A stretch of DNA of 64,000 bases from NCBI GenBank assembly GCA_022072445.1, contig JAJVHV010000030.1:5971-69970 (forward strand), given 5' to 3'. Position 1 is the first letter of the stretch. Every line of letters starts with the position of its first letter. This document shows, in pieces, positions 51,179 to 63,887 of the stretch. The translations under genes were made by a program, and so were the position numbers. The notes under the pieces were generated by a model, which was not told where the DNA came from, ran no database searches, and saw only the letters and a list, made by a program, of their open reading frames with translations. The stretch is from Phycisphaerae bacterium (lineage in GTDB: Bacteria; Planctomycetota; Phycisphaerae; UBA1845; Fen-1342).

Positions 51179-54100
51179 CTACCTCACACTGAAATACCGC
51201 GCCGCGGGATGATGCGCGATCACCGCGCTGGTGCTCTGCTCCGGATCAAGCTGGTATTCGTCGCTGAGCGAAACGCCGATGCGCTGCGGCTCGAGCAACT
51301 GCATGAGCTTGGCCTGGTCTTCCAGGTTCGGGCAGGCCGGGTAGCCGAAGCTGAAGCGGCTGCCCTGGTAGCCCTGCTGAAACAGCTTCTGCCGCTCGCG
51401 GGCGTCGTCGCCGGCGATCCCAAGCTCCATCCGCACCTGCTTGTGCACGTATTCGGCCAGCGCCTCGGCGGTCTCGACGCCCAGGCCGTGCAGGAAGAGG
51501 TATTGCTGATACTCGTTGCGGGCGAACCACTCGCGGGCCACCTCGCTGACGCGCTGGCCGGCGGTCACCAGCGAAAGGGCGATCACGTCGGTCTCCCCGC
51601 TCTCGACCGGTCGCCAGAAGTCGGACAGACACCAGTGCGGCGGCTTCTGCTGCCGCGGGAAGGTGAAGCGGGCCACTTCACAGCCACGTTGCGACGGAGA
51701 CAAGGGCGAGCGAGAAGGTAGCCCGAATGAGCCACGGAGGGAGGGAGCGGCTCGATCGCTGGACAGGCCCGGAGAAGCGAGCGCAATCGGAGTCGATCCC
51801 GGCGCAGACGCCATCGACTCCAGTCCTTCCTTCCCCTTCGTGCCTCCGTGGCTTCCTGGCTTCGTGGCGCCTTCTCCTTTCGTGGCTTCGTGGCTTCGTG
51901 GCTTCGTGGCTGTGTCCCAGATGATCAGATCGTCGCCGTCGGAGTTGCAGGGCCAGTAGCCGTAGATGGCCTGCGGCCGGAGGATCGCCTCGCGCTCGCA
52001 ACGCGCGACCAGCTCGCGGTAGATCGGCCGCACGTCGCGGTCGATGTAGCGGCGGAAGTCATCGCCGGCGCGGCCGCGCTTGCGGAAGCCCCACTGCACC
52101 TGGAAGAGCATGATCTCGTTCATGTAGCCCAGAGCGGCCTTGAGCGGGATGTGCTCGAGCACGCGCGCACCCCAGAAGGGCGGCGCGGGAATGGCGTTGT
52201 CGATCGGGATTTCGGAGCGGCGGCGCGGCGGCGCGGCGGCGCGGGCGCGGTCAATCGCGCTGGCCGCGACGAGCGGGCCCTCGGCGACGGCGTCGTCATC
52301 CTCGGCGGTCTCGCCGATGGCGGCGAGGCCGAAGCGCTGCTCGGCGTCGAGGTCGAGGCGGCGCGGGGGTTGGGCGGCGGAGATCGACGCTGCTTCCAGG
52401 TCCGGGCGGTCCTTGCGTCCGAAGGAAACCCCTCCCTTACGGTCGGGGCTCGGCTGGGTGGCGGCGCTCGGCTGGGTGATTTCTCGTTCTTCCAACGCTT
52501 CGTCGCGTTGTCGCTTTTCCCCTTGGTCGTTTCGTCGCTCTGTCGCTTCGTCGCGTCGCCCCGTCGTCGCTTCGTCGCTTCGTCGCTTCGTCGCTGTGAT
52601 CTCCCCCATCAGCCGCAGACCCTCGAACGCGTCCTTCGCGTATGAGAGGCTTCCGGCGTAGAGCGGGCGCAGGTCGTTCTCGACGTAGCCGCGCGTCAGC
52701 GCGGCGCCGCCGAGGATGACCGGCACGCGGATGCCCTGCTCCTCGAGCACGAGCAGATCGTCGCGCATCACCAGCGTCGACTTCACCAGCAGGCCCGACA
52801 GCCCGATCGCGTCGGCGGCGTGCTCGCGCCAGGCGGCGATGACGTTGTTGATCGGCTGCTTGATGCCCAGGTTGAACACGCGGTAGCCGTTGTTGGTCAG
52901 AATGATGTCGACCAGGTTCTTGCCGATGTCGTGCACGTCGCCGCGGACGGTCGCCAGCACGATCCTGCCGCGCGACGTGTCGGCGGAGCGGTCCATGTGC
53001 GGCTCAAGCAGGGCGACGGCGGCTTTCATCGTCTCGGCGGACTTGAGCACGAAGGGGAGCTGCATCTGGCCCGAGCCGAAGAGGTCGCCGACGGTCTTCA
53101 TGCCGTCGAGCAGCAGGTTGTTGATGATGTCGAGCGGCGCGTAGGTCTGGAGCGCGACGGCGAGGTCGGCGTCGAGGCCGATTCTCTCGCCGTCGATGAT
53201 GCGGCGTTTGAGGCGCTCCTCGATGGGCAGGTCGGCGATCTTGACTTTCGTGCCGACTTGTTCGGTATCGGAGAAGAGGCCGATAAACCGAACCAGCGGG
53301 TCCTCATGTGGCACAGCCGCCCCCGGCTGTGAATGTGGCACAGCCGCCCCCGGCAGTGGCTGTGGCTGTGCCACATCGTAGATCAAATTCAGCGCCGCCT
53401 CCCAGCGCTCGTCGCTGATCTGATTGCGCGGCAGGATCTTGCTCGAATGCACGATCGCCGCGGTCAGGCCGCGCTGCCGGGCCTCGTGCAGGAACACAGA
53501 ATTGAGGACCGCGCGGGCGGCGGGGACAAGGCCGAAGCTGACGTTGCTGACGCCCAGGATCGACTGGCAGCGCGGGAAGCGCGTCATCACCGCTTCGATG
53601 CCGTCGAGCGTCTCGAGCGCCAGCCGCCGATCGGCCTCGTTGCCGGTCGTGATCGGGAATGTCAGGCAATCGAAGAAGATGTCCTCTTCGGCGACGCCGT
53701 ACTTGCGCGTGAGCAGGTCGTGAATGCGCGTGGCGATTTCGAGCTTGCGCTGCGCGGTCTTGGCCATGCTCTCGATCGGGTCTTCGTCGATCGTGAGCGC
53801 GACGACGGCGGCGCCGTATTGCCGCAGCAGCCGCGCGACGCGGGCCATCTTGACTTCGCCGTCCTCGAGGTTGACGGAGTTGACGATGCACTTGCCGCCG
53901 ATGAGCTTCAGGCCGGCTTCGATCACCTCGGGCTCGGTGCTGTCGAGCATGATGGGGACGTTGACGTCGACGGCGTAGCGGTCGGCGACGCGCGTCATGT
54001 CGGCGACGCCGTCGCGCCCGACGTAGTCGACGCACAGGTCGAGGACGTGCGCGCCTTCCTTCACCTGCTCGACGCCCACCTGCACCAGGCCCTCGATGTC

Positions 54101-55363
54101 GCCTTCCGCGAGCAGGCGTTTGAACTGCCGGCTGCCGTTGGTGTTGCTGCGCTCGCCGACGATCAGAAAGCTGTTGTCCTGGCGGTAGGGCATGGCCTGG
54201 TAAAGGCTGCTGCACGCCGCCTCACGAGATCGGCTCGGCGATGGGCCTAATGCAGAATGAAGAATGCAGAATGCAGAAGCGTCCTCCGTCGTCGAGCCGG
54301 GCTCAGGTTTCGTCGCCGGTGCGGGCGGATGCTCGGCGGACCCAGAAAGGCCGATTGCAGAGGCATCCGGCGACGAAGAACCGGTTTCTGCATTCCGCGT
54401 TCTGCATTCTGCATTGCTTTCTGCATTGCCGTGGAATCCGATCGCCTCCACCACCGCGCGCAGATGCGCCGGCGTCGTGCCGCAGCAGCCGCCGACGATC
54501 CGCACGCCGTCAACGTCGACGAACTCCTTCAGCCAGCGGGCCAGCTCGGCCGGCGCGAGCGGGAAGTGCGTACGCCCGCTGACGAGCTGCGGCAGGCCGG
54601 CGTTCGGCATCACGCTGATCGGACGCGTGCTGTTCCGCGCCAGATACCGCACGTGCTCGCTCATCTCCTGCGGCCCGGTGGCGCAGTTCAACCCGATTAC
54701 GTCGACTTCCGGATACGCCTCGATCGCCACCAGCGCGGCGGCGACGTCGGTGCCCACCAGCATCGTGCCGGTGGTCTCCATGGTTACCTGCACCATGAGC
54801 GGCAAGCGCTTGCCGGTTTTCTCGAACGCCGACAGCACGGCCCAGATCACGGCCTTGGCGTGCAGGATGTCCTGACACGTCTCGATCAGCATCGCGTCGC
54901 AGCCGCCGTCGATCAGCCCGCGGGCCTGCTCGCCGTAGCTCTCGAGCAGCCCGTCGTACGAAATCTGCCGCAGCGTCGGCAGCTTCGTCCCCGGACCGAG
55001 CGAGCCGACGACGAAGCGCGGCCGCGGCAGCGTCGAAAACGCCTCGCACGCCCGCCGCGCGATCTTCGCCGCCGCGACGTTGATCTCGTAGCAGCGGTCA
55101 GCCAGGCCGAACTCGGCCAGCACGTGCCGCATGCCGCCGAAGGTGTTGGTTTCGACCGCGTCGCAGCCGACGTCGAGAAAGCTGCGGTGAATTTGCTCGA
55201 CGGCGTCGGGGCGGGTGAGGTTCAGGACTTCGCAGCAGTTTTCGAGGCCGTTGTAGTCGCTCAGCGGCAGATCGAGCGCGTGGATGCTGGTGCCCATGGC
55301 GCCGTCGAGAAACACCACGCGCCGCCCGACGAGTTCCAGAAACGCCGATTCCGATCCGCGCAA
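51179..55363 (-). CDS. metH: cobalamin-dependent methionine synthase, 1394 aa with several in-frame low-complexity/repeat insertions
   Basis: All four modules recognisable: homocysteine-binding (GAMGTSI...GGCCGTTPAH), pterin-binding, B12-binding (DVHDIGKN) and AdoMet activation (FPRQ). About 160 aa longer than typical because of repeat insertions. Confidence 0.9.
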   Translation of the reverse strand: MRGSESAFLELVGRRVVFLDGAMGTSIHALDLPLSDYNGLENCCEVLNLTRPDAVEQIHRSFLDVGCDAVETNTFGGMRHVLAEFGLADRCYEINVAAAKIARRACEAFSTLPRPRFVVGSLGPGTKLPTLRQISYDGLLESYGEQARGLIDGGCDAMLIETCQDILHAKAVIWAVLSAFEKTGKRLPLMVQVTMETTGTMLVGTDVAAALVAIEAYPEVDVIGLNCATGPQEMSEHVRYLARNSTRPISVMPNAGLPQLVSGRTHFPLAPAELARWLKEFVDVDGVRIVGGCCGTTPAHLRAVVEAIGFHGNAESNAECRTRNAETGSSSPDASAIGLSGSAEHPPAPATKPEPGSTTEDASAFCILHSALGPSPSRSREAACSSLYQAMPYRQDNSFLIVGERSNTNGSRQFKRLLAEGDIEGLVQVGVEQVKEGAHVLDLCVDYVGRDGVADMTRVADRYAVDVNVPIMLDSTEPEVIEAGLKLIGGKCIVNSVNLEDGEVKMARVARLLRQYGAAVVALTIDEDPIESMAKTAQRKLEIATRIHDLLTRKYGVAEEDIFFDCLTFPITTGNEADRRLALETLDGIEAVMTRFPRCQSILGVSNVSFGLVPAARAVLNSVFLHEARQRGLTAAIVHSSKILPRNQISDERWEAALNLIYDVAQPQPLPGAAVPHSQPGAAVPHEDPLVRFIGLFSDTEQVGTKVKIADLPIEERLKRRIIDGERIGLDADLAVALQTYAPLDIINNLLLDGMKTVGDLFGSGQMQLPFVLKSAETMKAAVALLEPHMDRSADTSRGRIVLATVRGDVHDIGKNLVDIILTNNGYRVFNLGIKQPINNVIAAWREHAADAIGLSGLLVKSTLVMRDDLLVLEEQGIRVPVILGGAALTRGYVENDLRPLYAGSLSYAKDAFEGLRLMGEITATKRRSDEATTGRRDEATERRNDQGEKRQRDEALEEREITQPSAATQPSPDRKGGVSFGRKDRPDLEAASISAAQPPRRLDLDAEQRFGLAAIGETAEDDDAVAEGPLVAASAIDRARAAAPPRRRSEIPIDNAIPAPPFWGARVLEHIPLKAALGYMNEIMLFQVQWGFRKRGRAGDDFRRYIDRDVRPIYRELVARCEREAILRPQAIYGYWPCNSDGDDLIIWDTATKPRSHEATKGEGATKPGSHGGTKGKEGLESMASAPGSTPIALASPGLSSDRAAPSLRGSFGLPSRSPLSPSQRGCEVARFTFPRQQKPPHWCLSDFWRPVESGETDVIALSLVTAGQRVSEVAREWFARNEYQQYLFLHGLGVETAEALAEYVHKQVRMELGIAGDDARERQKLFQQGYQGSRFSFGYPACPNLEDQAKLMQLLEPQRIGVSLSDEYQLDPEQSTSAVIAHHPAARYFSVR
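53305..53375. repeat. 27-bp-period tandem duplication plus inverted partial copy inside metH
   Basis: ATGTGGCACAGCCGCCCCCGGC occurs twice (53305, 53332), then GGCTGTGCCACAT inverted at 53363; encodes PGAAVPHSQ/PGAAVPHED in MetH. Confidence 0.85.
54251..54427. repeat. heptamer-array-bounded inverted-repeat mini-element (MITE-like) inserted in frame in metH
   Basis: (TGCAGAA)4 at 54251-54278 and (TTCTGCA)n at 54386-54427 in inverted orientation, about 107 bp apart; 177 bp = 59 codons without stops in the metH frame. Confidence 0.8.
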
Positions 55364-56671: not shown

Positions 56672-57079
56672 ATGGAAACGTCCCCCGGCATCCTGGGTCG
56701 ATTGTCCGAAAAAGTGCTCGGTTGGATCGCGCTGGGCCTGCTCGTCGCGCTGGGAATCGCCATCTGGCAGACCCCCGCCGACACCAAGCAGGCCATCTGG
56801 AGTGGCGTCTGGCGCGCCACGGCGTGGCTTGCGATCGTCGCGACGTTGCCCTGGGCCAGCCGCCTCTTCATGGGTCGCGTGCTGGAGCAATCGTCGAACT
56901 GGGCCGGGGTGGCGCTGGTCGCCGCTTACTGCCTGGCGGACGTGATCGCGGCGGTGTGCCTGATGACGGTCTGGCCGGCGAGCGGTTGGGCCTGGTTCCT
57001 GAGCGCCGTCGCGCTGGCCATCGCAGGGACGTATAATTATCTGGTTTGCGAGTATGTCGCGGAACAATCGGGCCTATGA
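56672..57079 (+). CDS. small polytopic membrane protein
   Basis: Four predicted TM helices; immediately precedes the kinase gene. Confidence 0.5.
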   Translation: METSPGILGRLSEKVLGWIALGLLVALGIAIWQTPADTKQAIWSGVWRATAWLAIVATLPWASRLFMGRVLEQSSNWAGVALVAAYCLADVIAAVCLMTVWPASGWAWFLSAVALAIAGTYNYLVCEYVAEQSGL

Positions 57080-57122
57080 AGCCGATCTGTGAACAATGCG
57101 GGCGGCTTTGCGGGGTCGAGCG

Positions 57123-58196
57123 ATGAGCACGAAATATCAGACCGGGCTGCGCGTCAGCGAATACGTACTGGAAGAATGCGTCGGCAGCGGCGCGTTCGCC
57201 GAGGTTTGGCGCGCCCGGCATCACATTTGGGAGTCCGAACAGGTCGCGGTGAAACTGCCGCTCCAGCCCGAATTCGCGCGCTATCTGCGGCGCGAGGGCG
57301 CGGTGGTCCACGGCGTGCGGCACGCCAACGTCGTGCGCGTCCTGGGGATCGACCCGTACGGCGAGATTCCGTATCTGGTCATGGAGCTGGTGCGCGGTCC
57401 GTCGCTCAAAAGCGTGATCGTCGAGCATCGCACCGGCGTGCCGGTCGACCTGGCGCTGCGCGTTTTCCGCGGCATCCTGACCGGGTTGGCGGCCGCGCAC
57501 GAAGCGAATGTGATTCACCGCGACATCAAGCCGGGCAACATCCTGCTCGATCTCAATGGCAAGCCGCTGTCGGAGCTGCGCAGCGAGCAGGTGAAGCTGG
57601 GCGACTTCGGCTTCGGGCTGGCCGACGTCGACGCCATGCAGTCGATCGCGCAGTCGGCGTCGATCAGCCGCTCCGACGCTCTGGTCGGAACGATCGCGTA
57701 CATGGCCCCGGAGCTGCGCGACGGGCACGCGGCAGCCGACGAGAAGTCCGACCTGTACGCCGTCGGGGTGGTGCTCTTTGAGCTGCTGACCGGCGAGCGG
57801 CCGGCCGGCGCCGAGCTGCCCAGCAGTGTCCGGCCGGCGATCAGCCCGGCGCTCGACGAGCTATTCAAGAAACTCTATGCGCGGCACGACCGCCGCTACG
57901 CCTCGGCCAACGCCGTGCTGCACGACCTGGACGCGCGGGTGCCCGCCCCCGACGGGGCGCCCGGCGCGCCGCACCTGCCGCCCTTGCCCGAGTCGGGCCG
58001 CCCGCGTTCGTCGCGGGCGAACTGGACGTGCGGCTCGTGCCATCGGCCGGCCGATCCGGCCGACCAGTTCTGCATCCACTGCGGGGCCCAACTGGTCGAG
58101 CGCGTGCGGCGTTGTCCGGGCTGCGATGGGTTTCCCGGCGTGGACGATCGATTCTGCATTTTTTGCGGCGCGTCGCTGCCGCCCGTGACCACGTGA
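57123..58196 (+). CDS. Ser/Thr protein kinase with C-terminal double zinc ribbon
   Basis: GSGAFAEVW, VAVK, HRDIKPGNILL, DFG, APE motifs; C-terminal CGSCHR...CIHCG...CPGCDG...CIFCG. Confidence 0.85.
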   Translation: MSTKYQTGLRVSEYVLEECVGSGAFAEVWRARHHIWESEQVAVKLPLQPEFARYLRREGAVVHGVRHANVVRVLGIDPYGEIPYLVMELVRGPSLKSVIVEHRTGVPVDLALRVFRGILTGLAAAHEANVIHRDIKPGNILLDLNGKPLSELRSEQVKLGDFGFGLADVDAMQSIAQSASISRSDALVGTIAYMAPELRDGHAAADEKSDLYAVGVVLFELLTGERPAGAELPSSVRPAISPALDELFKKLYARHDRRYASANAVLHDLDARVPAPDGAPGAPHLPPLPESGRPRSSRANWTCGSCHRPADPADQFCIHCGAQLVERVRRCPGCDGFPGVDDRFCIFCGASLPPVTT

Positions 58197-58207: not shown

Positions 58208-58504
58208 ATGCACGGCCAAGGCGTCATTGTCCTCTGGGTTTTCGGCCTGCTGTTCGTCGGCGTCATCGGCATCGCCATGCTGGTGCTTGTCGCCGTTCTG
58301 CGCGCCGGCGGCAGGATTTTCCGGCACGTCGGTTTGGCCATGGGCGAGACCGGCGGCCGCGGGTCGGCCCCCTCGGGTGCCGCGGGCCGGCCGCGCTTCT
58401 GCACGCGGCGCGGCTGCCTGCATCCCAACCGCGGCGCGGCCCGCTTCTGCGCCCGCTGTGGTCAGGCGCTCGGCGGCGGGTACGATACGGAACTGTATGG
58501 ATGA
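58208..58504 (+). CDS. small membrane protein with C-terminal zinc ribbon
   Basis: TM segment VIVLWVFGLLFVGVIGIAMLVLVAVL and CTRRGCLHP...CARCG. Confidence 0.5.
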   Translation: MHGQGVIVLWVFGLLFVGVIGIAMLVLVAVLRAGGRIFRHVGLAMGETGGRGSAPSGAAGRPRFCTRRGCLHPNRGAARFCARCGQALGGGYDTELYG

Positions 58505-59969
58505 GATCGCGCGACAGCGGCAGTTTGAGGAGCAGTTCCTCCAGCAGATCCGCGCCAAGGCCGCCGGCCTGACGCGCGGCACCCTGCCCGCCGACCGCGT
58601 CGTCGTCGAAAAGGTGCCCGACGGCATCGACGGCGTGCGGGCCACGCTGAGCCGCCTGGAGGTCTTCGATCACGAGCTGCTGCACCGCATGCCGGGCACG
58701 CAGGCCTGCCAGCTCAAGTTCACACGCTCGATGCTCGGCGGCCTGATGGAGCGGACCGTCTCGCGGCTGCGGGCCGTCGTGCTCGCGCCGGTCGCCGCGC
58801 TGGCCACCGGTCAGGCGCCCGGACCGGTGACCCGCGAGGACGTGCTCAACGCGCTGGCTCGCTACGACCTGATGCCGCGCGGCATGAGACCCACCGGCGT
58901 GGTCTTCGCCGCGCCCACCGGCTTCAGCGACAGCGCCCGCTCGCTGGTGAACGGGCCCGGTTCGCCTACGGTGATTCTGATGGGCGGCCGGGCCGACGGC
59001 GGCTGGGACGTGAGCATGTCCGATGCGGTCGCGAAGAGTCCCTGGGGCAAGCTCTTCGAGCTCGAAACGCAGGACGAGCTGGTCAAGCGCCTCGCGCATC
59101 ATCTCGACGAGTCCGCCGACCTCGTCGATTCTCGCGGACTGTCGATCGAGGAGCTGAGCGAGAAACTCGGCGTGGACCGCGACAAGACCGAGACCCTGGT
59201 GCGCAAACTGGCCCGCACCGACCCGCGCATCATGACCGTCGCCCACGACGGCCGAACGCACGTGTGCCGTACACCCTTCGCCGAGGAGGGCTCTTCCATG
59301 AGTCTCTGGAGCCGAGTTCGCAGACTGCTGCGGCTGAAGCCGACCGTCGCCGAGCAGGTGCGCGAGATGACCGCGCAGCGCGTCAAGCTGGAGCAGCAGC
59401 GCTTCGAGATCGACCGCGCGGTCAACAAGCTCCAGGACGAAGAGGTGCGCATCGTCAAGAGCGGGGCCGCCGCCACCACCGACGTCGAAAAACGCCAGCT
59501 TGCCAGCAAGCTCGTGCGCCTGCGGCGCGACCTGGGCCGGCAAAAGGCCCAGGCCGACGTGCTCACCAAACAGATCGACATCATCGGCACGCACCTGCAC
59601 CATCTGACGCTGGCCGAGCGCGGGCGCCGCATGGAACTGCCCAAGGCCGAGGAGCTGACGCGCGAGGCGGCCCAGGCCGAACAGGTCATGGCCGATCTCT
59701 CGGCCAACGCCGAACTGGCCGTGGGCATCGAAGTTGGCGGCGGGGCGCAGGCCGTGTCGGATGAGGAAGCGGCGATCCTCGAAGAATTCGCGGCGGCGGC
59801 GGGGACGACGCCGGTGAAGGAAACGCCCGCGGCGGCGCCGGCGGCGGGCGAATCGGGACGGGTGGCGGATGCCGGCCGGTCAGGCCCGGTCCGCGCACCC
59901 AGCGCAGCGCCGCCGGTGCCTGGTGCGGCGGCGTCGAAGCGTGAGTCGGCGAAGCCGGAGATGGGGTAG
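58497..59969 (+). CDS. fusion protein: N-terminal domain with winged-helix-like segment + C-terminal ESCRT-III/Snf7-like coiled-coil domain
   Basis: ATG 58497 overlaps the upstream stop (ATGGATGA). The C-terminal 200 aa follow the ESCRT-III helix pattern (LWSRVRRLLRLK...QVREMTAQRVKLEQQRFEIDRAVNKLQDEE...KRQLASKLVRLRRDLGRQKAQADVLTKQIDII...) with an acidic tail. Confidence 0.55.
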   Translation: MDEIARQRQFEEQFLQQIRAKAAGLTRGTLPADRVVVEKVPDGIDGVRATLSRLEVFDHELLHRMPGTQACQLKFTRSMLGGLMERTVSRLRAVVLAPVAALATGQAPGPVTREDVLNALARYDLMPRGMRPTGVVFAAPTGFSDSARSLVNGPGSPTVILMGGRADGGWDVSMSDAVAKSPWGKLFELETQDELVKRLAHHLDESADLVDSRGLSIEELSEKLGVDRDKTETLVRKLARTDPRIMTVAHDGRTHVCRTPFAEEGSSMSLWSRVRRLLRLKPTVAEQVREMTAQRVKLEQQRFEIDRAVNKLQDEEVRIVKSGAAATTDVEKRQLASKLVRLRRDLGRQKAQADVLTKQIDIIGTHLHHLTLAERGRRMELPKAEELTREAAQAEQVMADLSANAELAVGIEVGGGAQAVSDEEAAILEEFAAAAGTTPVKETPAAAPAAGESGRVADAGRSGPVRAPSAAPPVPGAAASKRESAKPEMG

Positions 59970-59984: not shown

Positions 59985-60351
59985 GATGGACATGGCAAGT
60001 GCGCTGCCCACAGAGCTGCTGTTGCGTAAGCCCGTCGGCGAAGAAACTCTGCGTGAGCTTGTTCGCCGCATCGCCCAGCTTCGTAGCGACGCTTGCATCA
60101 TTCTGTTTGGGTCGCGGGCGCGCGGGGACGCACGGCCGGGGAGCGATCTTGATCTGATGGTTATCACGCAGGCGGATCGGAGTCCGCTGGCGATCGCGGG
60201 CGATCTCTACGCGGCACTGGCGGACCGTGATTTCGGGTTAGATATCGTCGTCATGCCGCGCGACCGCGTGCGGCGGGCACGAGACGGGTTCGATCCTTTT
60301 CTGAACGAGGTGCTCGCACAAGGCAGAGTCCTGCATGGCCGACTGCATTGA
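59985..60351 (+). CDS. minimal nucleotidyltransferase (MNT, Pol-beta superfamily)
   Basis: ILFGSRARGDARPGSDLDLMV (GS...D.D). Confidence 0.8.
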
Positions 60352-60724
60352 CTTTGAAGACTGGCTGGCCAAAGCGGAGGGAGATCGAGAAGGCGCCATG
60401 CTGCTGATGCGCGAATTCAGCAAATCTATCGCCGGCCTGATTGCCTTTTTGTGTCAGCAGTCGGTGGAGAAGTACCTCAAGGCGCTCCTGGTGCGTCAAC
60501 GAGTCTCTTTTCCTCGTACGCATGACCTGGCGGCGCTTGCGGCAGGCAGCTATCCGGACATCGCTCGAATTCAGCCATCGCTCGCGCGACTTCAGCCGTA
60601 TGCGGTTAATGTGCGATACCCTGGATTTGATCCGGAGCGCCCCGAATGCGAAGAGGCGATCGGCCATCTGGAACGAGTCCGGTCACATTGCCGCGAGCTG
60701 CTCGAATTGGGTGAGTGCGAATGA
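60335..60724 (+). CDS. HEPN domain protein (partner of the MNT)
   Basis: AVEKYLKALL...R-x6-H (RVSFPRTH); overlaps the MNT 3' end. Confidence 0.8.
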   Translation: MADCIDFEDWLAKAEGDREGAMLLMREFSKSIAGLIAFLCQQSVEKYLKALLVRQRVSFPRTHDLAALAAGSYPDIARIQPSLARLQPYAVNVRYPGFDPERPECEEAIGHLERVRSHCRELLELGECE

Positions 60725-61326
60725 ACTTCTTCACCTGGCTGACGACCAAACGCAAGACGCTCGCGACGATGAGCGCCGCCGAGCTGCGCGCCCAGGAGAT
60801 GATGCTCGAGAACGAGCGCGACCGCATGCTGAAGCGCATGGAGAAGCTGGCCGGCGAGAAGCACCAGGTGATCGAGCGCGGCGCGAAGGAACGCACGCCC
60901 GAGCTGCGTAAGACCTACGCGCAGCAGTTCGACCTGCTGCACACCGAGCAGATGATGCTCAGCCGGCACCTGAACATCCGCAGCAAGGAGCTGCTGACCG
61001 TCTCGCGGCTGCGCATGCTGCGCGAGACGGCCCAGCGGGCCGGCACCGGCATGGGTGCGTTCGGCACGATTCGCGAAAAGGATCTGGCGGTGATCGAGGC
61101 CCTGATCGAGAACGACAAGGTCACCACCGACATGTACCAGGAGCGGCTCGACGCGATCCTGCAGATCGGCGCGGCGGCGGACGAGGAGGCGACCGGCCTT
61201 TCGGCGGCGGCGGGCGAGCTGCTCAAGGTCTGGAACGACATGGACGCCGGGCTGATCTCCAACACGGCCGAAGCGTTCGACGAGGCGGAGAAGCGGGTGC
61301 GTGAGAGAAACAGAGCAGCGGAGTAG
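60721..61326 (+). CDS. ESCRT-III/Snf7-like coiled-coil protein
   Basis: MNFFTWLTTKRKT...AELRAQEMMLENERDRMLKRMEKLAGEKHQVIERGAK...MLSRHLNIRSKELLTVSRLRMLRETAQ... mirrors the Snf7 helix 1-4 layout; start ATGA-coupled to the HEPN gene. Confidence 0.55.
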   Translation: MNFFTWLTTKRKTLATMSAAELRAQEMMLENERDRMLKRMEKLAGEKHQVIERGAKERTPELRKTYAQQFDLLHTEQMMLSRHLNIRSKELLTVSRLRMLRETAQRAGTGMGAFGTIREKDLAVIEALIENDKVTTDMYQERLDAILQIGAAADEEATGLSAAAGELLKVWNDMDAGLISNTAEAFDEAEKRVRERNRAAE

Positions 61327-61332
61327 CCTCAT

Positions 61333-61701
61333 ATGCAACGACGCCCGAACCAGCGCGAAAACCGCGAGGCGCTCCGCGGCCCGATTGACAATCGCGTCAT
61401 TGGACAAATCGTAGACCGCTTGTCCAAGCGGTTGCCGGACTGCTGCATTGTGCTTTTCGGCTCCCGGGCCTACGGAACGCCGACCAGCCAGAGTGACGTT
61501 GATCTGCTGGTGGTGGCCCCGTCGCAACGTGACCCGTACGTGCTCTGCGGCGAACTACATCGCGAACTCAGTCCACGGGATTTCTCCGTTGATCTACTGG
61601 TCATGACGCCCGAGACTTTTCGTCAGCGCCGCTCACGGTTTGATCCGTTTTTTGCAGAACTCACCTCAAAGGGCCGCGTCCTGCATGGTCATCTCCCCTG
61701 A
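61333..61701 (+). CDS. minimal nucleotidyltransferase (MNT)
   Basis: VLFGSRAYGTPTSQSDVDLLV. Confidence 0.8.
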   Translation: MQRRPNQRENREALRGPIDNRVIGQIVDRLSKRLPDCCIVLFGSRAYGTPTSQSDVDLLVVAPSQRDPYVLCGELHRELSPRDFSVDLLVMTPETFRQRRSRFDPFFAELTSKGRVLHGHLP

Positions 61702-62071
61702 TGCGGCGGAATGGGTCGATCGCGCCGAAGGGGACGTGCGCGCGCTTCGGAAGCTCGACCCAGTCGAGGATCGTGTCGTCGTGGCGTTTCTCGCTCAGCA
61801 GGCCGCGGAGAAGTACCTGAAGGCCACTCTGGTCAACAGCCGGATATGCTTTCCAAAACCACACGACTTGGTCGCGCTCGTCTCCCTGTGTCGGCAGATC
61901 AGTGATGAATTCGAGTCGTTGGTGGGCGCTGCCGCCGTGTTGCAGCCCTTTGCGGTGGACGTGCGATATCCCGGACCCGCCCCCGGAGAGGCCGCCGTGC
62001 GGGCGGCGATTGAGAATATGGACGTGATCCGAACCTTTTGCCGCGAGAGGCTTGCGCTGCAAGCGCCCTGA
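61685..62071 (+). CDS. HEPN domain protein
   Basis: AAEKYLKATL...R-x6-H (RICFPKPH); overlaps the MNT 3' end. Confidence 0.8.
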   Translation: MVISPDAAEWVDRAEGDVRALRKLDPVEDRVVVAFLAQQAAEKYLKATLVNSRICFPKPHDLVALVSLCRQISDEFESLVGAAAVLQPFAVDVRYPGPAPGEAAVRAAIENMDVIRTFCRERLALQAP

Positions 62072-62095: not shown

Positions 62096-62713
62096 ATGGC
62101 CCTATTCAAGTCAAAAGAAGAGCGCCGCATCGAGCAGGACATCAAGATCCGCCAGGGCATCCGCCGGATCGAGAAGTCCATCAGCGAGCAGAGCAAGTTC
62201 ACCGACGAGTTCGTGAAGAACGCCCGGCATGCGAAACAGATCGGCGACAACGGGCAGTATGTCTTCATCCGCAACTCGCTCAAGAAGACCGCCACCATCA
62301 AGAAGCTGCTCGAACGGCAGCTTCTGAGCGTCAAAAACGCGCTGCTGATCAAACGCCAGGCCGAGGCCTCGGCCGATTTCGCCAACGCCATGAGCCTGAT
62401 GGCCCGCGAAGTGGGCAAGCTCTACGGCGACACCGATCTCGTGAAGACGCAGACCGACTGGGAGAAGGCGCTGCTGCAGAGCCAGACGATGGAGGAGCGC
62501 ATGCAGATGTTCCTCGATTCGATCGAAAGCGGCGCCGCGGCCGACATCGCCGCCTCGCCGACGGCCGCCGAAGCGATCAGCGACGACGAGATCGACCGCA
62601 TGATCGCGGTTGAGGAGCAGGTGGAGAAGGCGAAGGAGACGCAGCAGATGTCGGCGCTGCGGGCGGAGCTGGCGGAGCTGAAGGGGGAGAGTAAGGATAA
62701 GGAGACGAAGTGA
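62096..62713 (+). CDS. ESCRT-III/CHMP-like coiled-coil protein
   Basis: MALFKSKEERRIEQDIKIRQGIRRIEKSISEQSKFTDEFVKNARHAKQIGDNGQYVFIRNSLKK...ANAMSLMA matches the CHMP2/Snf7 layout (MSLFGK start, basic helix 1-2, acidic C-terminus). Confidence 0.6.
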   Translation: MALFKSKEERRIEQDIKIRQGIRRIEKSISEQSKFTDEFVKNARHAKQIGDNGQYVFIRNSLKKTATIKKLLERQLLSVKNALLIKRQAEASADFANAMSLMAREVGKLYGDTDLVKTQTDWEKALLQSQTMEERMQMFLDSIESGAAADIAASPTAAEAISDDEIDRMIAVEEQVEKAKETQQMSALRAELAELKGESKDKETK

Positions 62714-62850: not shown

Positions 62851-63549
62851 GTGAGAGCATTGCCGATTAAGCCGCAGAAGTGGTTAGAGATGCTTGCTGA
62901 GGACTTGGTGCGCGACATCACGTCCAACCACTCGTTGCGCAGGTACACGACAAACGCGGATCTGCTTGGGGCGTGGGCTGAAGCGTGCGTACGAAACCTG
63001 ATTGCTCGCATGGTTCATCCGCTGCGAGTCTCACGCGGTGCGATCGTTTACGAAGGCATTTGCCCGGACGAAGTCCCAGAGCTGGATGCCATCGTGTGGA
63101 CCGCCGCACCCGTGCCGGCGGTCTTCGATCTTGGCGACTTTGCAATAGTACCGCGCGGCTCGGCCGTTGCTTTTCTTGAAGTCAAGCGAAGCGCGTACAC
63201 CGGCGTAAGCGACCGGATGCGCAAGACGCTCAACGGTACTGAGTGTCTCATCACACATTGCGAGCAAGAAAAGGGAACGCGCTTGGACGGAGAGGCTCTG
63301 GGTGTCGTCTGCATGAAGAGAGAGGACCAGAAACTCGACCGCACACTCCAAAGGCTCATGGACGACCAGAAGGCTGTTCTGCTCCTTGAGGAGAAGAATG
63401 GGTCCTGGAGGGCCATGGCGAGGGACGTACTTCGGCTTGTGAACTTTCTCGCGGCGGTGCGGGTCCGTGCGTTCGTCCTTGCATCCCAGCTCGGCGTAAA
63501 CACCGAGATTCTGGCTCCGGTACTAGGTAGCGACGGGACAGCGTCATGA
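62851..63549 (+). CDS. hypothetical protein, possible PD-(D/E)xK-like nuclease fold
   Basis: D...FLEVKRS spacing (D-x13-E-V-K); weak. Confidence 0.35.
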   Translation: MRALPIKPQKWLEMLAEDLVRDITSNHSLRRYTTNADLLGAWAEACVRNLIARMVHPLRVSRGAIVYEGICPDEVPELDAIVWTAAPVPAVFDLGDFAIVPRGSAVAFLEVKRSAYTGVSDRMRKTLNGTECLITHCEQEKGTRLDGEALGVVCMKREDQKLDRTLQRLMDDQKAVLLLEEKNGSWRAMARDVLRLVNFLAAVRVRAFVLASQLGVNTEILAPVLGSDGTAS

Positions 63550-63887
63550 TCGGTATCTGCACGCCCGTTCGAGTCACCGACGAACGGATCGCCGAAGTCG
63601 TGCGCCGCCTGGTCGAGGCGTTGCATCCGCAGCGCATCTACCTCTTCGGCTCGCATGCCTACGGAACGCCTCACGCGGACAGCGACGTCGACCTCCTTGT
63701 GCTGGTTGATGACGCCGAGCTGACGCAGGACGATCATGACCAGCGCGGCTATCGCTCTCTGCGCGGGATGTTTCTACCCATCGAGCTGCACATTCGAGGT
63801 CGGCAGGCGTTCGAACGGCGCGCGGTCGCTCCTCACAGTTTCGAGAACGAGATCCTGCGAAAGGGCAAGCTGCTCTATGCCGCGTGA
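63546..63887 (+). CDS. minimal nucleotidyltransferase (MNT)
   Basis: YLFGSHAYGTPHADSDVDLLV. Confidence 0.8.
   Translation: MIGICTPVRVTDERIAEVVRRLVEALHPQRIYLFGSHAYGTPHADSDVDLLVLVDDAELTQDDHDQRGYRSLRGMFLPIELHIRGRQAFERRAVAPHSFENEILRKGKLLYAA

Follow-up and report, generated by a model that had tools for sequence, protein, structure and literature searches.

In archaea, ESCRT loci join genes for Vps4, ESCRT-III, winged-helix (wH) proteins located upstream of ESCRT-III, Ser/Thr kinases and zinc ribbons (PMC10936438), and for the euryarchaeal loci HEPN, SPFH and beta-propeller accessories are also listed (Makarova et al. 2024, mBio; PMC10936438). The crenarchaeal protein CdvB itself carries a C-terminal wH (PMC10936438). 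For bacteria, isolated transfers of a VPS4-like ATPase and some associations of Snf7/PspA with AAA proteins have been described, in a study in which planctomycetes are not mentioned (PMC11237479). All planctomycetes lack FtsZ (PMC6952346), and the Phycisphaerae divide by binary fission, the driver of which is unknown (PMC12673574).

The locus presented here lies in a window of 64,000 nucleotides (the whole stretch of DNA that was analysed) from a Phycisphaerae bacterium. Its genes encode, in a conserved order, a 4-TM protein, a Ser/Thr kinase with zinc ribbons, a TM-Zn-ribbon protein, the protein under study (hereafter the target), two ESCRT-III-like proteins of ~200 aa and, usually, an AAA ATPase. 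The presence of ESCRT-III, an AAA ATPase, a wH protein, membrane-associated Ser/Thr kinases and zinc ribbons in one locus is shared with the euryarchaeal ESCRT loci. Those loci are archaeal, are defined by a bona fide Vps4 and encode the wH separately, whereas here the host belongs to the Planctomycetota and the wH is fused. Compared with the CdvA-CdvB-CdvC system, the host is bacterial, no MIT domain is demonstrable in the ATPase and the upstream position of CdvA is taken by a TM+Zn-ribbon protein; no CdvA-like gene was found in the operon by a Pfam scan of the window proteins and by locus comparison. The operons of PspA/Vipp1 (IM30) differ in having PspF/PspBC, where the operon described here encodes a classic AAA ATPase and a kinase alongside its several paralogs.

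The target gene and its homologs

The target gene (58497..59969, + strand) is an ORF with a stop-free translation of 490 aa, comprising an REase-like domain, a winged helix, an ESCRT-III-like domain and a disordered tail. It is a real gene, with homologs of full length: full-length orthologs were found at 55 genome loci (46-65% identity), the titles of which all name Phycisphaerae, Planctomycetota or uncultured Planctomycetales, and more than 186 database proteins (470-515 aa) are homologous over the full length with 51-66% identity. The module recurs in divergent Planctomycetota at about 30% identity, with the gene order unchanged. Pfam, NCBIfam and PADLOC scans gave no above-threshold family for the target or for its downstream paralogs, E203 and E205. 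A related subfamily always follows a JAB+ThiF E1-like gene.

The octamer ATGGATGA is common to the target ATG (58497) and the TGA of an upstream 98-aa ORF (58208..58504, + strand), which encodes a protein that starts with a TM helix and has a 4-Cys zinc ribbon on the cytosolic side. The same octamer forms the start of the target gene in 36 of 47 orthologous loci, and in 21 loci the match to the upstream TM+Zn-ribbon protein terminates exactly 4 nt beyond the target ATG. The overlap with the stop of the Zn-ribbon membrane gene, to which the earlier note had drawn attention, is conserved and points to translational coupling of the target to this membrane protein.

The AlphaFold (AF2) model of the target was composed of four parts (residues 1-190, 192-258, 270-277 and 284-436), followed by a disordered Pro-rich tail. 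The fusion was retained in every full-length homolog, as the earlier note had asked of the homologs, and shorter fusion variants (wH+ESCRT-III and Zn-ribbon+wH+ESCRT-III) were also present. About 40 database proteins of ~200 aa, matching the C-terminal domain only and starting at the conserved Met268, had been read as stand-alone ESCRT-III homologs. This reading was withdrawn because six of the seven checked proteins of ~200-280 aa come from contigs of 0.9-1.5 kb, and because one short protein (P0208) falls in the same 90% cluster as a 476-aa protein. The short proteins were kept as diverse sequences in the family profile. An internal Shine-Dalgarno sequence before Met268 was also rejected: GGAGG is present in a few loci only and is not consistently conserved.

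The N-terminal domain and the winged helix

The N-terminal extension of the target is 267 residues long, close to the ~270-aa domain with a winged-helix-like segment that had been described from the sequence. Residues 1-190 (58497..59066, + strand) are modelled as an alpha/beta, restriction-endonuclease-like fold of the PD-(D/E)xK type, with the alpha-beta-beta-beta-alpha-beta core of these nucleases. The matches of this domain included Can2, Cap4, HamA, Avs4 and restriction enzymes, and non-catalytic users of the REase fold (the Rpb5 N-domain and the YqgP N-domain) scored no lower than the nucleases. A conserved catalytic D...(D/E)xK was not found in residues 1-190, nor was any Lys present among the invariant or near-invariant columns (alignments A1 and A4); the core strands carry R90 and R92. 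The domain is probably not catalytic and is apparently inactive, unlike the Mrr-like/AF1548-type nuclease domains, which have the D...(D/E)xK residues.

The winged helix occupies residues 192-258 (59070..59270, + strand), with three or four helices, a beta-hairpin wing and a pLDDT of about 90. The segment singled out in the earlier note, LSIEELSEKLGVDRDKTETLVRKLARTD (residues 215-242), supplies the second and third helices in the AlphaFold model, and the elements H217-224 and H228-241 are followed by the hairpin E245-250/E253-258; the three-helix bundle and wing of a winged helix-turn-helix are thereby complete. When the target model was compared with the PDB using Foldseek, the wH alone was matched. 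The best structural matches of the wH are generic (Zalpha, ArsR, MarR and GntR), with no ESCRT-II chain and no specific similarity to Vps25, Vps22 or Vps36 among the structural matches listed. The comparison with Vps25/Vps22 and MarR-like domains that had been proposed for residues 1-270 bore out the wH but not a likeness to ESCRT-II, which has a tandem wH pair, whereas the target has a single wH on the same polypeptide as the core. Because there is one wH, with generic matches, and residues 1-190 are REase-like, the parallel with ESCRT-II drawn in the earlier note is an analogy of role and not homology.

A covalent fusion of wH and ESCRT-III, seen in the earlier note as a notable architecture, has a precedent. 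A wH is already present in crenarchaeal CdvB, in which it is C-terminal; in the target it is N-terminal and preceded by the 190-aa REase-like domain, and the CdvB arrangement, in which a CdvA-binding wH comes after the core, was not found. The novelty lies in the order of the domains, in the additional domain at the N-terminus and in the host, a bacterium. As in eukaryotic and Asgard B-type ESCRT-III, the wH module immediately precedes the polymerising domain.

The ESCRT-III-like domain

The ESCRT-III-like core spans residues 284-436 (59346..59804, + strand), as located by AF2, hhalign and the match to CdvB. In the AF2 model, a hairpin (H284-325/H329-375) is followed by H384-414 and H416-436, which corresponds to the long alpha1-alpha2/3 hairpin, alpha4 and alpha5 of the ESCRT-III superfamily fold. 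Of the reference sequences, the ESCRT-III set (A3) and VPS4A were verified against the PDB. By hhalign, the C-terminal family of the target (A2) matched the six ESCRT-III proteins of A3 with Prob 89% and E 2.3e-6 over 140 colinear columns, and the Snf7/CHMP4B/CHMP6 class with 93.7% (local) and 95.2% (global). The real score was 46.5, compared with 17.7 for the reversed control and a maximum of 29.8 for the block-shuffled controls; the colinear alignment lies ~6-10 SD above shuffled or reversed controls keeping composition and heptad character. The result was negative for the Vps2/CHMP1 class. For E. coli PspA a Prob of 0.4% was obtained, in a test that is weak because it used one reference sequence only.

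CdvB (9s9j) was the only natural PDB match of the family profile (E 0.0076, in register); nothing useful came from the PDB when it was searched by phmmer or, starting from the low-diversity profile A1, by hmmsearch. The ESCRT-III HMM aligned in register with residues ~280-470 of many target orthologs and, among all the operon proteins, its matches were confined to the target, E203 and E205 families. The target missed the gathering threshold of Pfam Snf7 (PF03357; 27.3 bits), with 12.7 bits and E 0.1, and in this respect differs from eukaryotic and Asgard B-type ESCRT-III. Snf7 was the Pfam family matched by the largest number of orthologs (10/32, all sub-threshold, with E at least 0.08) and was also matched by 3 of 39 diverse family members; none of the 71 family members scanned was above the curated threshold, the best E being 0.0045. 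PspA_IM30 (PF04012) was absent from the Pfam matches of the target and from the 25 most-hit families of both per-member scans. The C-terminal domain, for which an ESCRT-III likeness had been claimed, is a Snf7-class ESCRT-III homolog on the grounds of profile-profile comparison and structure only, and not by the curated Pfam threshold. With Snf7/CHMP4 and Vps20/CHMP6 it shares the best profile match, the same helix order, an acidic alpha5-like segment (EExAILxEF) and a Pro-rich tail, likened to MIM2 by eye only.

A candidate alpha0 membrane-binding motif precedes the core at residues 268-281 (59298..59339, + strand; MSLWSRVRRLLRLK). M268 is invariant, the basic-hydrophobic helix 270-277 is present in the AlphaFold model, and the conserved stretch from Met268 reads M-S-[LI]-W-S-R-[IV]-R-[RK]-L-L-R-[LM]-K. 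The hydrophobic moment of 0.49 ranks only 45 among 476 windows, and the segment might act as a membrane binder of the alpha0 type. The Pro-rich tail (residues 437-490; 59805..59966, + strand) is disordered: residues 438-487 do not reach a pLDDT of 50. Target orthologs have PP[LV]PEK-like stretches in this part. The C-terminus of the tail is conserved as [AS][RK]PE[LMIV][GST], with P487 and E488 invariant, and is a candidate ATPase-recruiting motif. A ubiquitin-like C-terminal Gly was considered and dropped, since the protein may end in G, S, T or N.

Paralogs and operon conservation

Operon conservation was assessed over 57 loci, using tblastn orthologs. The first gene of the module (56672..57079, + strand) encodes a membrane protein of 135 aa, in whose sequence about four hydrophobic segments can be read; no Pfam family was found for it, and its tblastn orthologs were located upstream of the kinase in 51 loci. 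The next gene (57096..58196, + strand) encodes a Ser/Thr protein kinase (Pkinase E 7e-37, residues 23-239) with a C-terminal double zinc ribbon (DZR E 6e-6, residues 312-358). This gene is conserved immediately upstream in 53 loci, and the kinase is also present in the divergent lineages L062, L066 and L067; the kinase, the target and the two ~200-aa genes are all retained in divergent lineages. The 98-aa TM-Zn-ribbon protein has a conserved C...C...CxRCG motif, an NCBIfam match to 4Cys_prefix_kin (24.3 bits, cut-off 24) and a weak match to DZR.

The paralogy proposed in the earlier note extends to the downstream ~200-aa ORFs, which are also ESCRT-III-like. E203 (201 aa; 60721..61326, + strand, with a conserved start MNFF... 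at 60721) has orthologs directly 3' of the target in 51 loci, with 63-77% identity. Its HMM matches the C-terminal domains of the target family (E 3e-7), as does hhalign against the target C-terminus (E 1.5e-4). Its match to ESCRT-III itself was weak (local score 25.1, shuffles 16.0 +/- 2.9), and its link to ESCRT-III is indirect. E205 (205 aa; 62096..62713, + strand, N-terminus MGLFKSKEERR) has orthologs in 49 loci with 70-82% identity. Against ESCRT-III, global hhalign gave Prob 56%, E 1.6e-5 and a score of 29.3, compared with 7.4 +/- 3.1 (maximum 16.4) for the shuffle controls. The conserved C-terminal LRAELxxLK of E205 is MIM1-like by eye only. No significant match was found by BLASTP among the target, E203 and E205.

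Two NTase/HEPN pairs are also present. Pair 1 (59986..60724, + strand; NTase 59986-60351, NTP_transf_2 E 1e-10; HEPN 60335-60724, E 3e-19) differs in position between genomes and is a variable accessory inserted amid the operon genes, outside the core. Pair 2 (61333..62071, + strand) is inserted between E203 and E205 and has 42% and 39% identity to pair 1 by tblastn. The target gene always comes after the membrane-anchored Zn-ribbon gene, which it usually overlaps, and the gene for the Zn-ribbon kinase, and two further ESCRT-III-like proteins are always encoded behind it. The genes flanking the module are those of ordinary metabolism, with no defence islands. Weak SPFH/Band_7 matches were observed for the last operon gene. 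A 232-aa ORF at 62851-63549 does not correspond to the 220-aa Zn-ribbon gene found at locus L003.

The AAA ATPase

In 32 loci an AAA ATPase of 371-379 aa is encoded 3' of E205 in the same orientation; in one further locus (L050) its gene is upstream and reads from the other strand. Such a co-encoded ATPase, a feature of ESCRT systems, was near the target in 33 of the ~42 loci with at least 6 kb of downstream sequence; its gene is not part of the window, whose last position is 64000. In ~9 Phycisphaerae loci no ATPase gene is adjacent, and the ATPase is absent from the RAS1 locus and from the loci of divergent lineages. Its identity between loci is 69-84%.

The ATPase is a single-domain protein, with Pfam matches to AAA (E 8e-40), AAA_lid_3 and Vps4_C (E 1e-3; 19.4 bits, cut-off 21.3). 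By hhalign, it matched Vps4 at 100% with 39% identity over 273 columns, and the Vps4 beta-domain is absent from the ATPase in this alignment. BLASTP gave 181-184 bits to Vps4 and 178 bits to an unverified p97-D2 sequence, and the top PDB matches were Cdc48/p97. The SRH motif reads RPGRLD, which we take to be Cdc48-type rather than Vps4. By these comparisons, the ATPase appears equally similar to Vps4 and Cdc48-D2. The N-domain (~75 aa) is helical, with an MIT-like helix pattern by eye only, and none of three tests supported an MIT identity. Pfam MIT was matched in 1 of 10 ATPase orthologs (E 0.05), the other weak matches being TPR_1/2/8; hhalign against the Vps4 MIT gave 9.2, compared with 10.6 +/- 1.8 for shuffles; and the PDB profile search returned TPR/SEL1-like and designed repeats only.

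Proposed function and alternative explanations

The most likely role of the target is that of a nucleating subunit in ATP-driven membrane remodelling. With moderate confidence, we place it in a bacterial membrane-remodelling machine of the ESCRT-III type, conserved in the Phycisphaerae and related Planctomycetota, in which it would be the adaptor or the subunit that nucleates assembly. We infer steps of recruitment, polymerisation, disassembly and phosphoregulation. The TM-Zn-ribbon protein, the 4-TM protein or both would recruit the REase-like+wH module to the cytoplasmic membrane, by analogy with CdvA-CdvB (via the wH) or ESCRT-II-Vps20. The ESCRT-III domain would then polymerise on the membrane through the basic-hydrophobic alpha0 helix and the hairpin, and E203 and E205 would co-assemble with the target into a composite polymer. 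The AAA ATPase would engage the disordered C-terminal tails, extract subunits and drive remodelling or scission, and the kinase could set the timing through phosphorylation. The output might be membrane repair or vesiculation, or cytokinesis in FtsZ-less cells.

The alternative that survives best is a PspA/Vipp1-like repair of membrane stress, as opposed to division or scission, in which the ESCRT-III-like proteins would coat and stabilise the damaged inner membrane, the kinase would sense envelope stress and the wH may feed back on transcription. All characterised bacterial members of the ESCRT-III superfamily (PspA and Vipp1/IM30) act in membrane repair, the kinase with its zinc ribbons could be a sensor, and the SPFH/Band_7 matches of the last gene would fit. 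However, the family profile finds its match in the Snf7 class and none in PspA (the latter in the weak, single-reference test), PspA_IM30 is not among the 25 most-hit Pfam families listed, and an operon that combines three ESCRT-III paralogs and a classic AAA ATPase is nearer to the archaeal Cdv/ESCRT loci than to Psp operons. Repair of this kind is considered rather unlikely, with a chance that is still appreciable.

The ESCRT-III likeness could also reflect coiled-coil convergence, the target being a wH DNA-binding protein with a coiled-coil oligomeriser, for example a nucleoid or segregation factor resembling a ScpB/MukF partner, or a regulator. Against this, the end-to-end colinear alignment exceeds controls in which composition and heptad character are preserved, the similarity is specific to one class (Snf7 and not Vps2), two neighbouring paralogs independently align with ESCRT-III, and the target is translationally coupled to a membrane protein; convergence is improbable. 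An anti-phage or abortive-infection system, in which the nuclease-like domain, kinase, AAA ATPase and HEPN/NTase would make up a defence island, with the helical domain perforating or remodelling the membrane on infection, could draw on the nuclease and defence-protein matches of the REase-like fold, the matches of the kinase to the PADLOC PD-T4-6 and mad6 models, the NTase/HEPN pairs interleaved in many loci and the JAB+ThiF E1-like gene before the related subfamily, as in Ubl-conjugating defence operons, but is improbable given that the module has kept its synteny by vertical descent in 55 species-level genomes, at identities like those of housekeeping proteins (E205 and the AAA ATPase), keeps its gene order in divergent Planctomycetota, is flanked by metabolic genes, has an REase-like domain without a conserved (D/E)xK or Lys, and is null in PADLOC for the target, E203 and E205, the PD-T4-6 matches being generic to kinase domains.

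Within the preferred reading of an ESCRT-III-type remodelling machine, a role of the operon in FtsZ-less cell division is possible. In its strongest form, the operon would be the missing FtsZ-independent cytokinesis machine of the Phycisphaerae, with a reduced form in other Planctomycetota: a kinase-regulated ESCRT-III/AAA divisome analogous to Cdv, in which the REase-like+wH module would bring the polymer to the division site with the help of the membrane Zn-ribbon protein and perhaps of the nucleoid. This form of the proposal is speculative and, in our view, unlikely.

Significance

The locus brings together an ESCRT-III-like domain fused to a nuclease-like domain and a wH, a further pair of ESCRT-III-like proteins, a kinase and, in most cases, an AAA ATPase. 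Until now, reports of such a combination have come from archaea and eukaryotes alone. The operon would bear on how the ESCRT building blocks (ESCRT-III, wH, Zn-ribbon, kinase and AAA) assemble outside the archaea. Its deep conservation in the Phycisphaerae makes it a testable candidate for the question of FtsZ-less division. Even if its role is in repair or vesiculation, this would be, in the literature searched, the first bacterial ESCRT-III system of the Snf7 class to be described that has several paralogs and a linked ATPase.

Target gene, homologs and translational coupling

Translation of the window gave an uninterrupted ORF of 490 codons at 58497-59969 (+), whose product was identical to a hypothetical protein from a Phycisphaerae MAG. 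Homologs of full length (470-515 aa, 51-66% identity) numbered more than 186 in the protein database, and all those with an organism name were labelled Phycisphaerae or Planctomycetes, strain RAS1 among them. A scan of species-representative genomes gave 55 loci at 46-63% identity, with titles that were all Phycisphaerae, Planctomycetota or uncultured Planctomycetales. As the earlier note had claimed, the ATG overlaps the stop of a Zn-ribbon gene: the octamer ATGGATGA is common to this ATG and to the stop codon (TGA) of the 98-aa ORF that precedes it (58208-58504). The gene started with ATGGATGA in 36 of 47 loci, and the upstream-gene match stopped 4 nt beyond the ATG in 21 loci. As the homologs are full-length and the overlap is conserved, the gene, its length and its translational coupling are real and under selection. 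Further upstream, a 1394-aa MetH-like ORF on the opposite strand (51179-55363, -) carries several long Ala/Pro/Ser/Arg-rich low-complexity inserts, as read from its translation.

Domain architecture

An AlphaFold2 model was built on 32 orthologs (mean pLDDT 82). Residues 1-190 formed an alpha/beta domain (pLDDT >90) and residues 192-258 a winged helix (wH); the wH-like segment flagged earlier corresponded to its helices 2 and 3 (H217-224, H228-241), which were followed by a beta-hairpin wing. A short helix at residues 270-277, beginning at the invariant Met268 (MSLWSRVRRLLRLK), preceded the region 284-436, made up of a hairpin of two long helices (284-325, 329-375) and then helices 384-414 and 416-436. 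The Pro-rich tail (438-487) was disordered, with a conserved terminal [AS][RK]PE[LMIV][GST]. No invariant Lys or (D/E)xK was present in the alignment of the restriction endonuclease (REase)-like domain at residues 1-190, and conserved Arg residues occupied its core strands instead; for these reasons the domain is regarded as a putative non-catalytic recruitment or binding module.

Met268 (at 59298; 59274-59300 encode PFAEEGSSM) opens the ESCRT-III-like domain, is preceded in the window by GAGGAGGG at Shine-Dalgarno-like spacing, and is precisely where many database entries start. An internal start giving a free ESCRT-III isoform is conceivable from the sequence; against it, the purine-rich motif is conserved only in part and the Met268-starting entries come from contigs of ~1 kb. 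The 'stand-alone' ESCRT-III homologs of ~200 aa are probably truncated calls.

ESCRT-III identity of the C-terminal domain

An exhaustive HMM search of the family gave 284 cluster representatives, from which a diverse C-terminal-domain alignment (A2) of 39 sequences was made (mean column identity 28%). The sole natural PDB match of the A2 profile was CdvB (9s9j; E 0.0076), in register (residues 21-80 versus 21-83). A reference set of six ESCRT-III sequences (Snf7, CHMP4B, CHMP3, CHMP2A, CHMP1B and CHMP6) was verified by retrieval of the corresponding PDB chains (E 1e-47 to 1e-74). In hhalign, A2 matched this set with Prob 89% and E 2.3e-6 over 140 colinear columns, from alpha1 to alpha5; the score of 46.5 compared with 17.7 for the reversed alignment and a maximum of 29.8 for heptad-keeping block shuffles. 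The earlier claim of a C-terminal ESCRT-III-like domain was thus supported by a controlled profile comparison. Alignment of A2 to Snf7, CHMP4B and CHMP6 gave 93.7% (local) and 95.2% (global), and no hhalign match was obtained to CHMP2A, CHMP3 and CHMP1B, nor between the family and E. coli PspA (a single reference sequence). By these comparisons the signal is specific to the Snf7 class. The ESCRT-III-set HMM aligned in register with many orthologs (model ~13-205 versus residues ~280-470) and matched the target, E203 and E205 families but no other operon protein.

E203 (60721-61326, +) and E205 (62096-62713, +) are ~200-aa ORFs downstream of the target, with ortholog identities of 63-77% and 70-82%, respectively. 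The E203 HMM matched target-family members (E 3e-7), and hhalign aligned E203 with alpha1 and the hairpin tip of the target C-terminal domain (E 1.5e-4), which indicates that the two are related. For E205, the global hhalign alignment with ESCRT-III ran from end to end (Prob 56%, E 1.6e-5, score 29.3; shuffles 7.4 +/- 3.1, maximum 16.4); by eye, its N-terminus MGLFKSKEERR is of ESCRT-III type and its conserved C-terminal LRAELxxLK is MIM1-like. Description of the target as a 'first paralog' was therefore justified, with the link of E203 to ESCRT-III proper held at lower confidence.

Conserved operon and AAA ATPase

A constant order was observed in 57 loci: a ~135-aa 4-TM protein, a Ser/Thr kinase with a double Zn-ribbon, a ~100-aa TM protein with a 4-Cys Zn-ribbon, the target, E203 and E205. 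An AAA ATPase of 371-379 aa was present in 33 of ~42 loci with enough downstream sequence, after E205 in 32 and upstream on the opposite strand in one (L050). A TM2-domain protein (70 aa) often came next, ahead of a last gene of ~590 aa (L003:14517-16289; orthologs include L021:7155-8879). The N-terminal half of the latter gave weak SPFH/Band_7 matches in 2 of 9 orthologs and the C-terminal half gave weak PQQ-like beta-propeller matches, with one ortholog above the Pfam threshold (30.4 bits). The window ends (64000) before this ATPase/TM2/~590-aa part. Divergent members (~30% identity; the one named record is Planctomycetota) retained the TM protein, the kinase, a target-like gene and two ~200-aa genes, with no adjacent ATPase. 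At two divergent Planctomycetota loci (L066:5030-7066 and L067:6203-6934) a second small kinase adjoins the kinase-target module, with an FHA-domain protein also in L066, which hints at a phospho-signalling layer.

The ATPase shared 39% identity with Vps4 over 273 columns (reference verified against the PDB), and BLASTP scores were 181-184 bits for Vps4 and 178 bits for p97-D2. The Vps4_C match was below threshold and the Vps4 beta-domain was absent. Its helical N-domain (~75 residues) looked MIT-like by eye, and an MIT domain was not recovered by Pfam, hhalign or PDB profile search. The SRH motif has what we take to be a Cdc48-like appearance. Given the near-equal scores, the failed MIT tests, this SRH and the missing beta-domain, the architecture is called Vps4-like and is not assigned to a clade. 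A PspA-like stress system would belong to the same mechanism class, but fits poorly with the Snf7-specific signal and with a layout of several paralogs plus an AAA ATPase.

Inserted genes and a ThiF-linked subfamily

NTase/HEPN pairs occupy intergenic gaps of the operon at 59986-60724 and 61333-62071, and a third NTase gene (63546-63887) follows a 232-aa ORF (62851-63549). This ORF, found in the window only among the loci compared and with a weak PD-DExK match (PADLOC E 0.013), is probably an inserted accessory gene and not part of the operon. MNT-like NTase/HEPN pairs were also present in operon gaps of L003, L010, L012, L016, L026, L029, L030, L035, L047 and L053, with only 25-47% identity to the window pair and in a gap that differed by genome (target/E203, E203/E205 or E205/AAA). 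This distribution suggests either independent insertion on several occasions or a functional link; the components listed for archaeal ESCRT loci also include HEPN (PMC10936438).

A subfamily of ~400 aa (P0251, P0272, P0257) combines an N-domain, a Zn-ribbon, a wH and the ESCRT-III-like domain. In each of the three loci examined, a ~512-aa ThiF (E1-like) gene immediately precedes it (L060:8436-11206, L064:4441-7242, L065:4450-7221), with a Prok-JAB domain on the ThiF gene in L060 and L064. Small ORFs of 98-143 aa are found just upstream, plus a 31-aa ORF in L060 and L064. In these bacterial loci an ESCRT-III-like protein is paired with a ubiquitin-like conjugation enzyme.

A defence system is suggested by the REase fold and the kinase, by NTase/HEPN pairs interleaved with the operon genes, and by the JAB- and ThiF-linked subfamily; conservation of the operon is, however, vertical, syntenic and housekeeping-like, and the catalytic residues are absent. 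Convergence of coiled coils is opposed by the low scores of the reversed and shuffled controls and by independent alignments of the three paralogs.

Proposed mechanism and relation to known systems

The closest known system is CdvB/Cdv. The target differs in having its wH on the opposite side of the ESCRT-III core from that of CdvB and in its extra N-terminal domain, and CdvA is lacking here. The parallel with ESCRT-II drawn in the earlier note did not hold as homology, because the wH is single and generic. Archaeal loci share the parts list: Vps4, ESCRT-III and a wH protein upstream of ESCRT-III, as well as membrane Ser/Thr kinases, Zn-ribbons, SPFH and beta-propellers (Makarova et al., PMC10936438). 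For bacteria, the literature searched describes only scattered Snf7/PspA-AAA associations and VPS4-like ATPase transfers, none in Planctomycetes (PMC11237479), and a 2025 review of the phylum does not mention ESCRT (PMC12673574).

Beyond the demonstrated domain composition, homology, conserved gene order and translational coupling, an ESCRT-III-like mechanism may be proposed. Recruitment of the REase-like and wH module would fall to the membrane Zn-ribbon protein, the 4-TM protein or both, a role perhaps akin to that of CdvA for CdvB or ESCRT-II for Vps20. The ESCRT-III domain would then nucleate a membrane-bound polymer via alpha0 and the hairpin, and E203 and E205 might join to give a composite filament. 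The AAA ATPase would engage the disordered tails and remodel or disassemble the polymer, with the kinase possibly supplying timing. Physiologically, the system may serve membrane repair or vesiculation, on a conservative reading, or cytokinesis, on a bold one. FtsZ is missing from all planctomycetes, and what drives the binary fission of Phycisphaerae is not known (PMC6952346, PMC12673574). The operon makes the question of planctomycete division testable.
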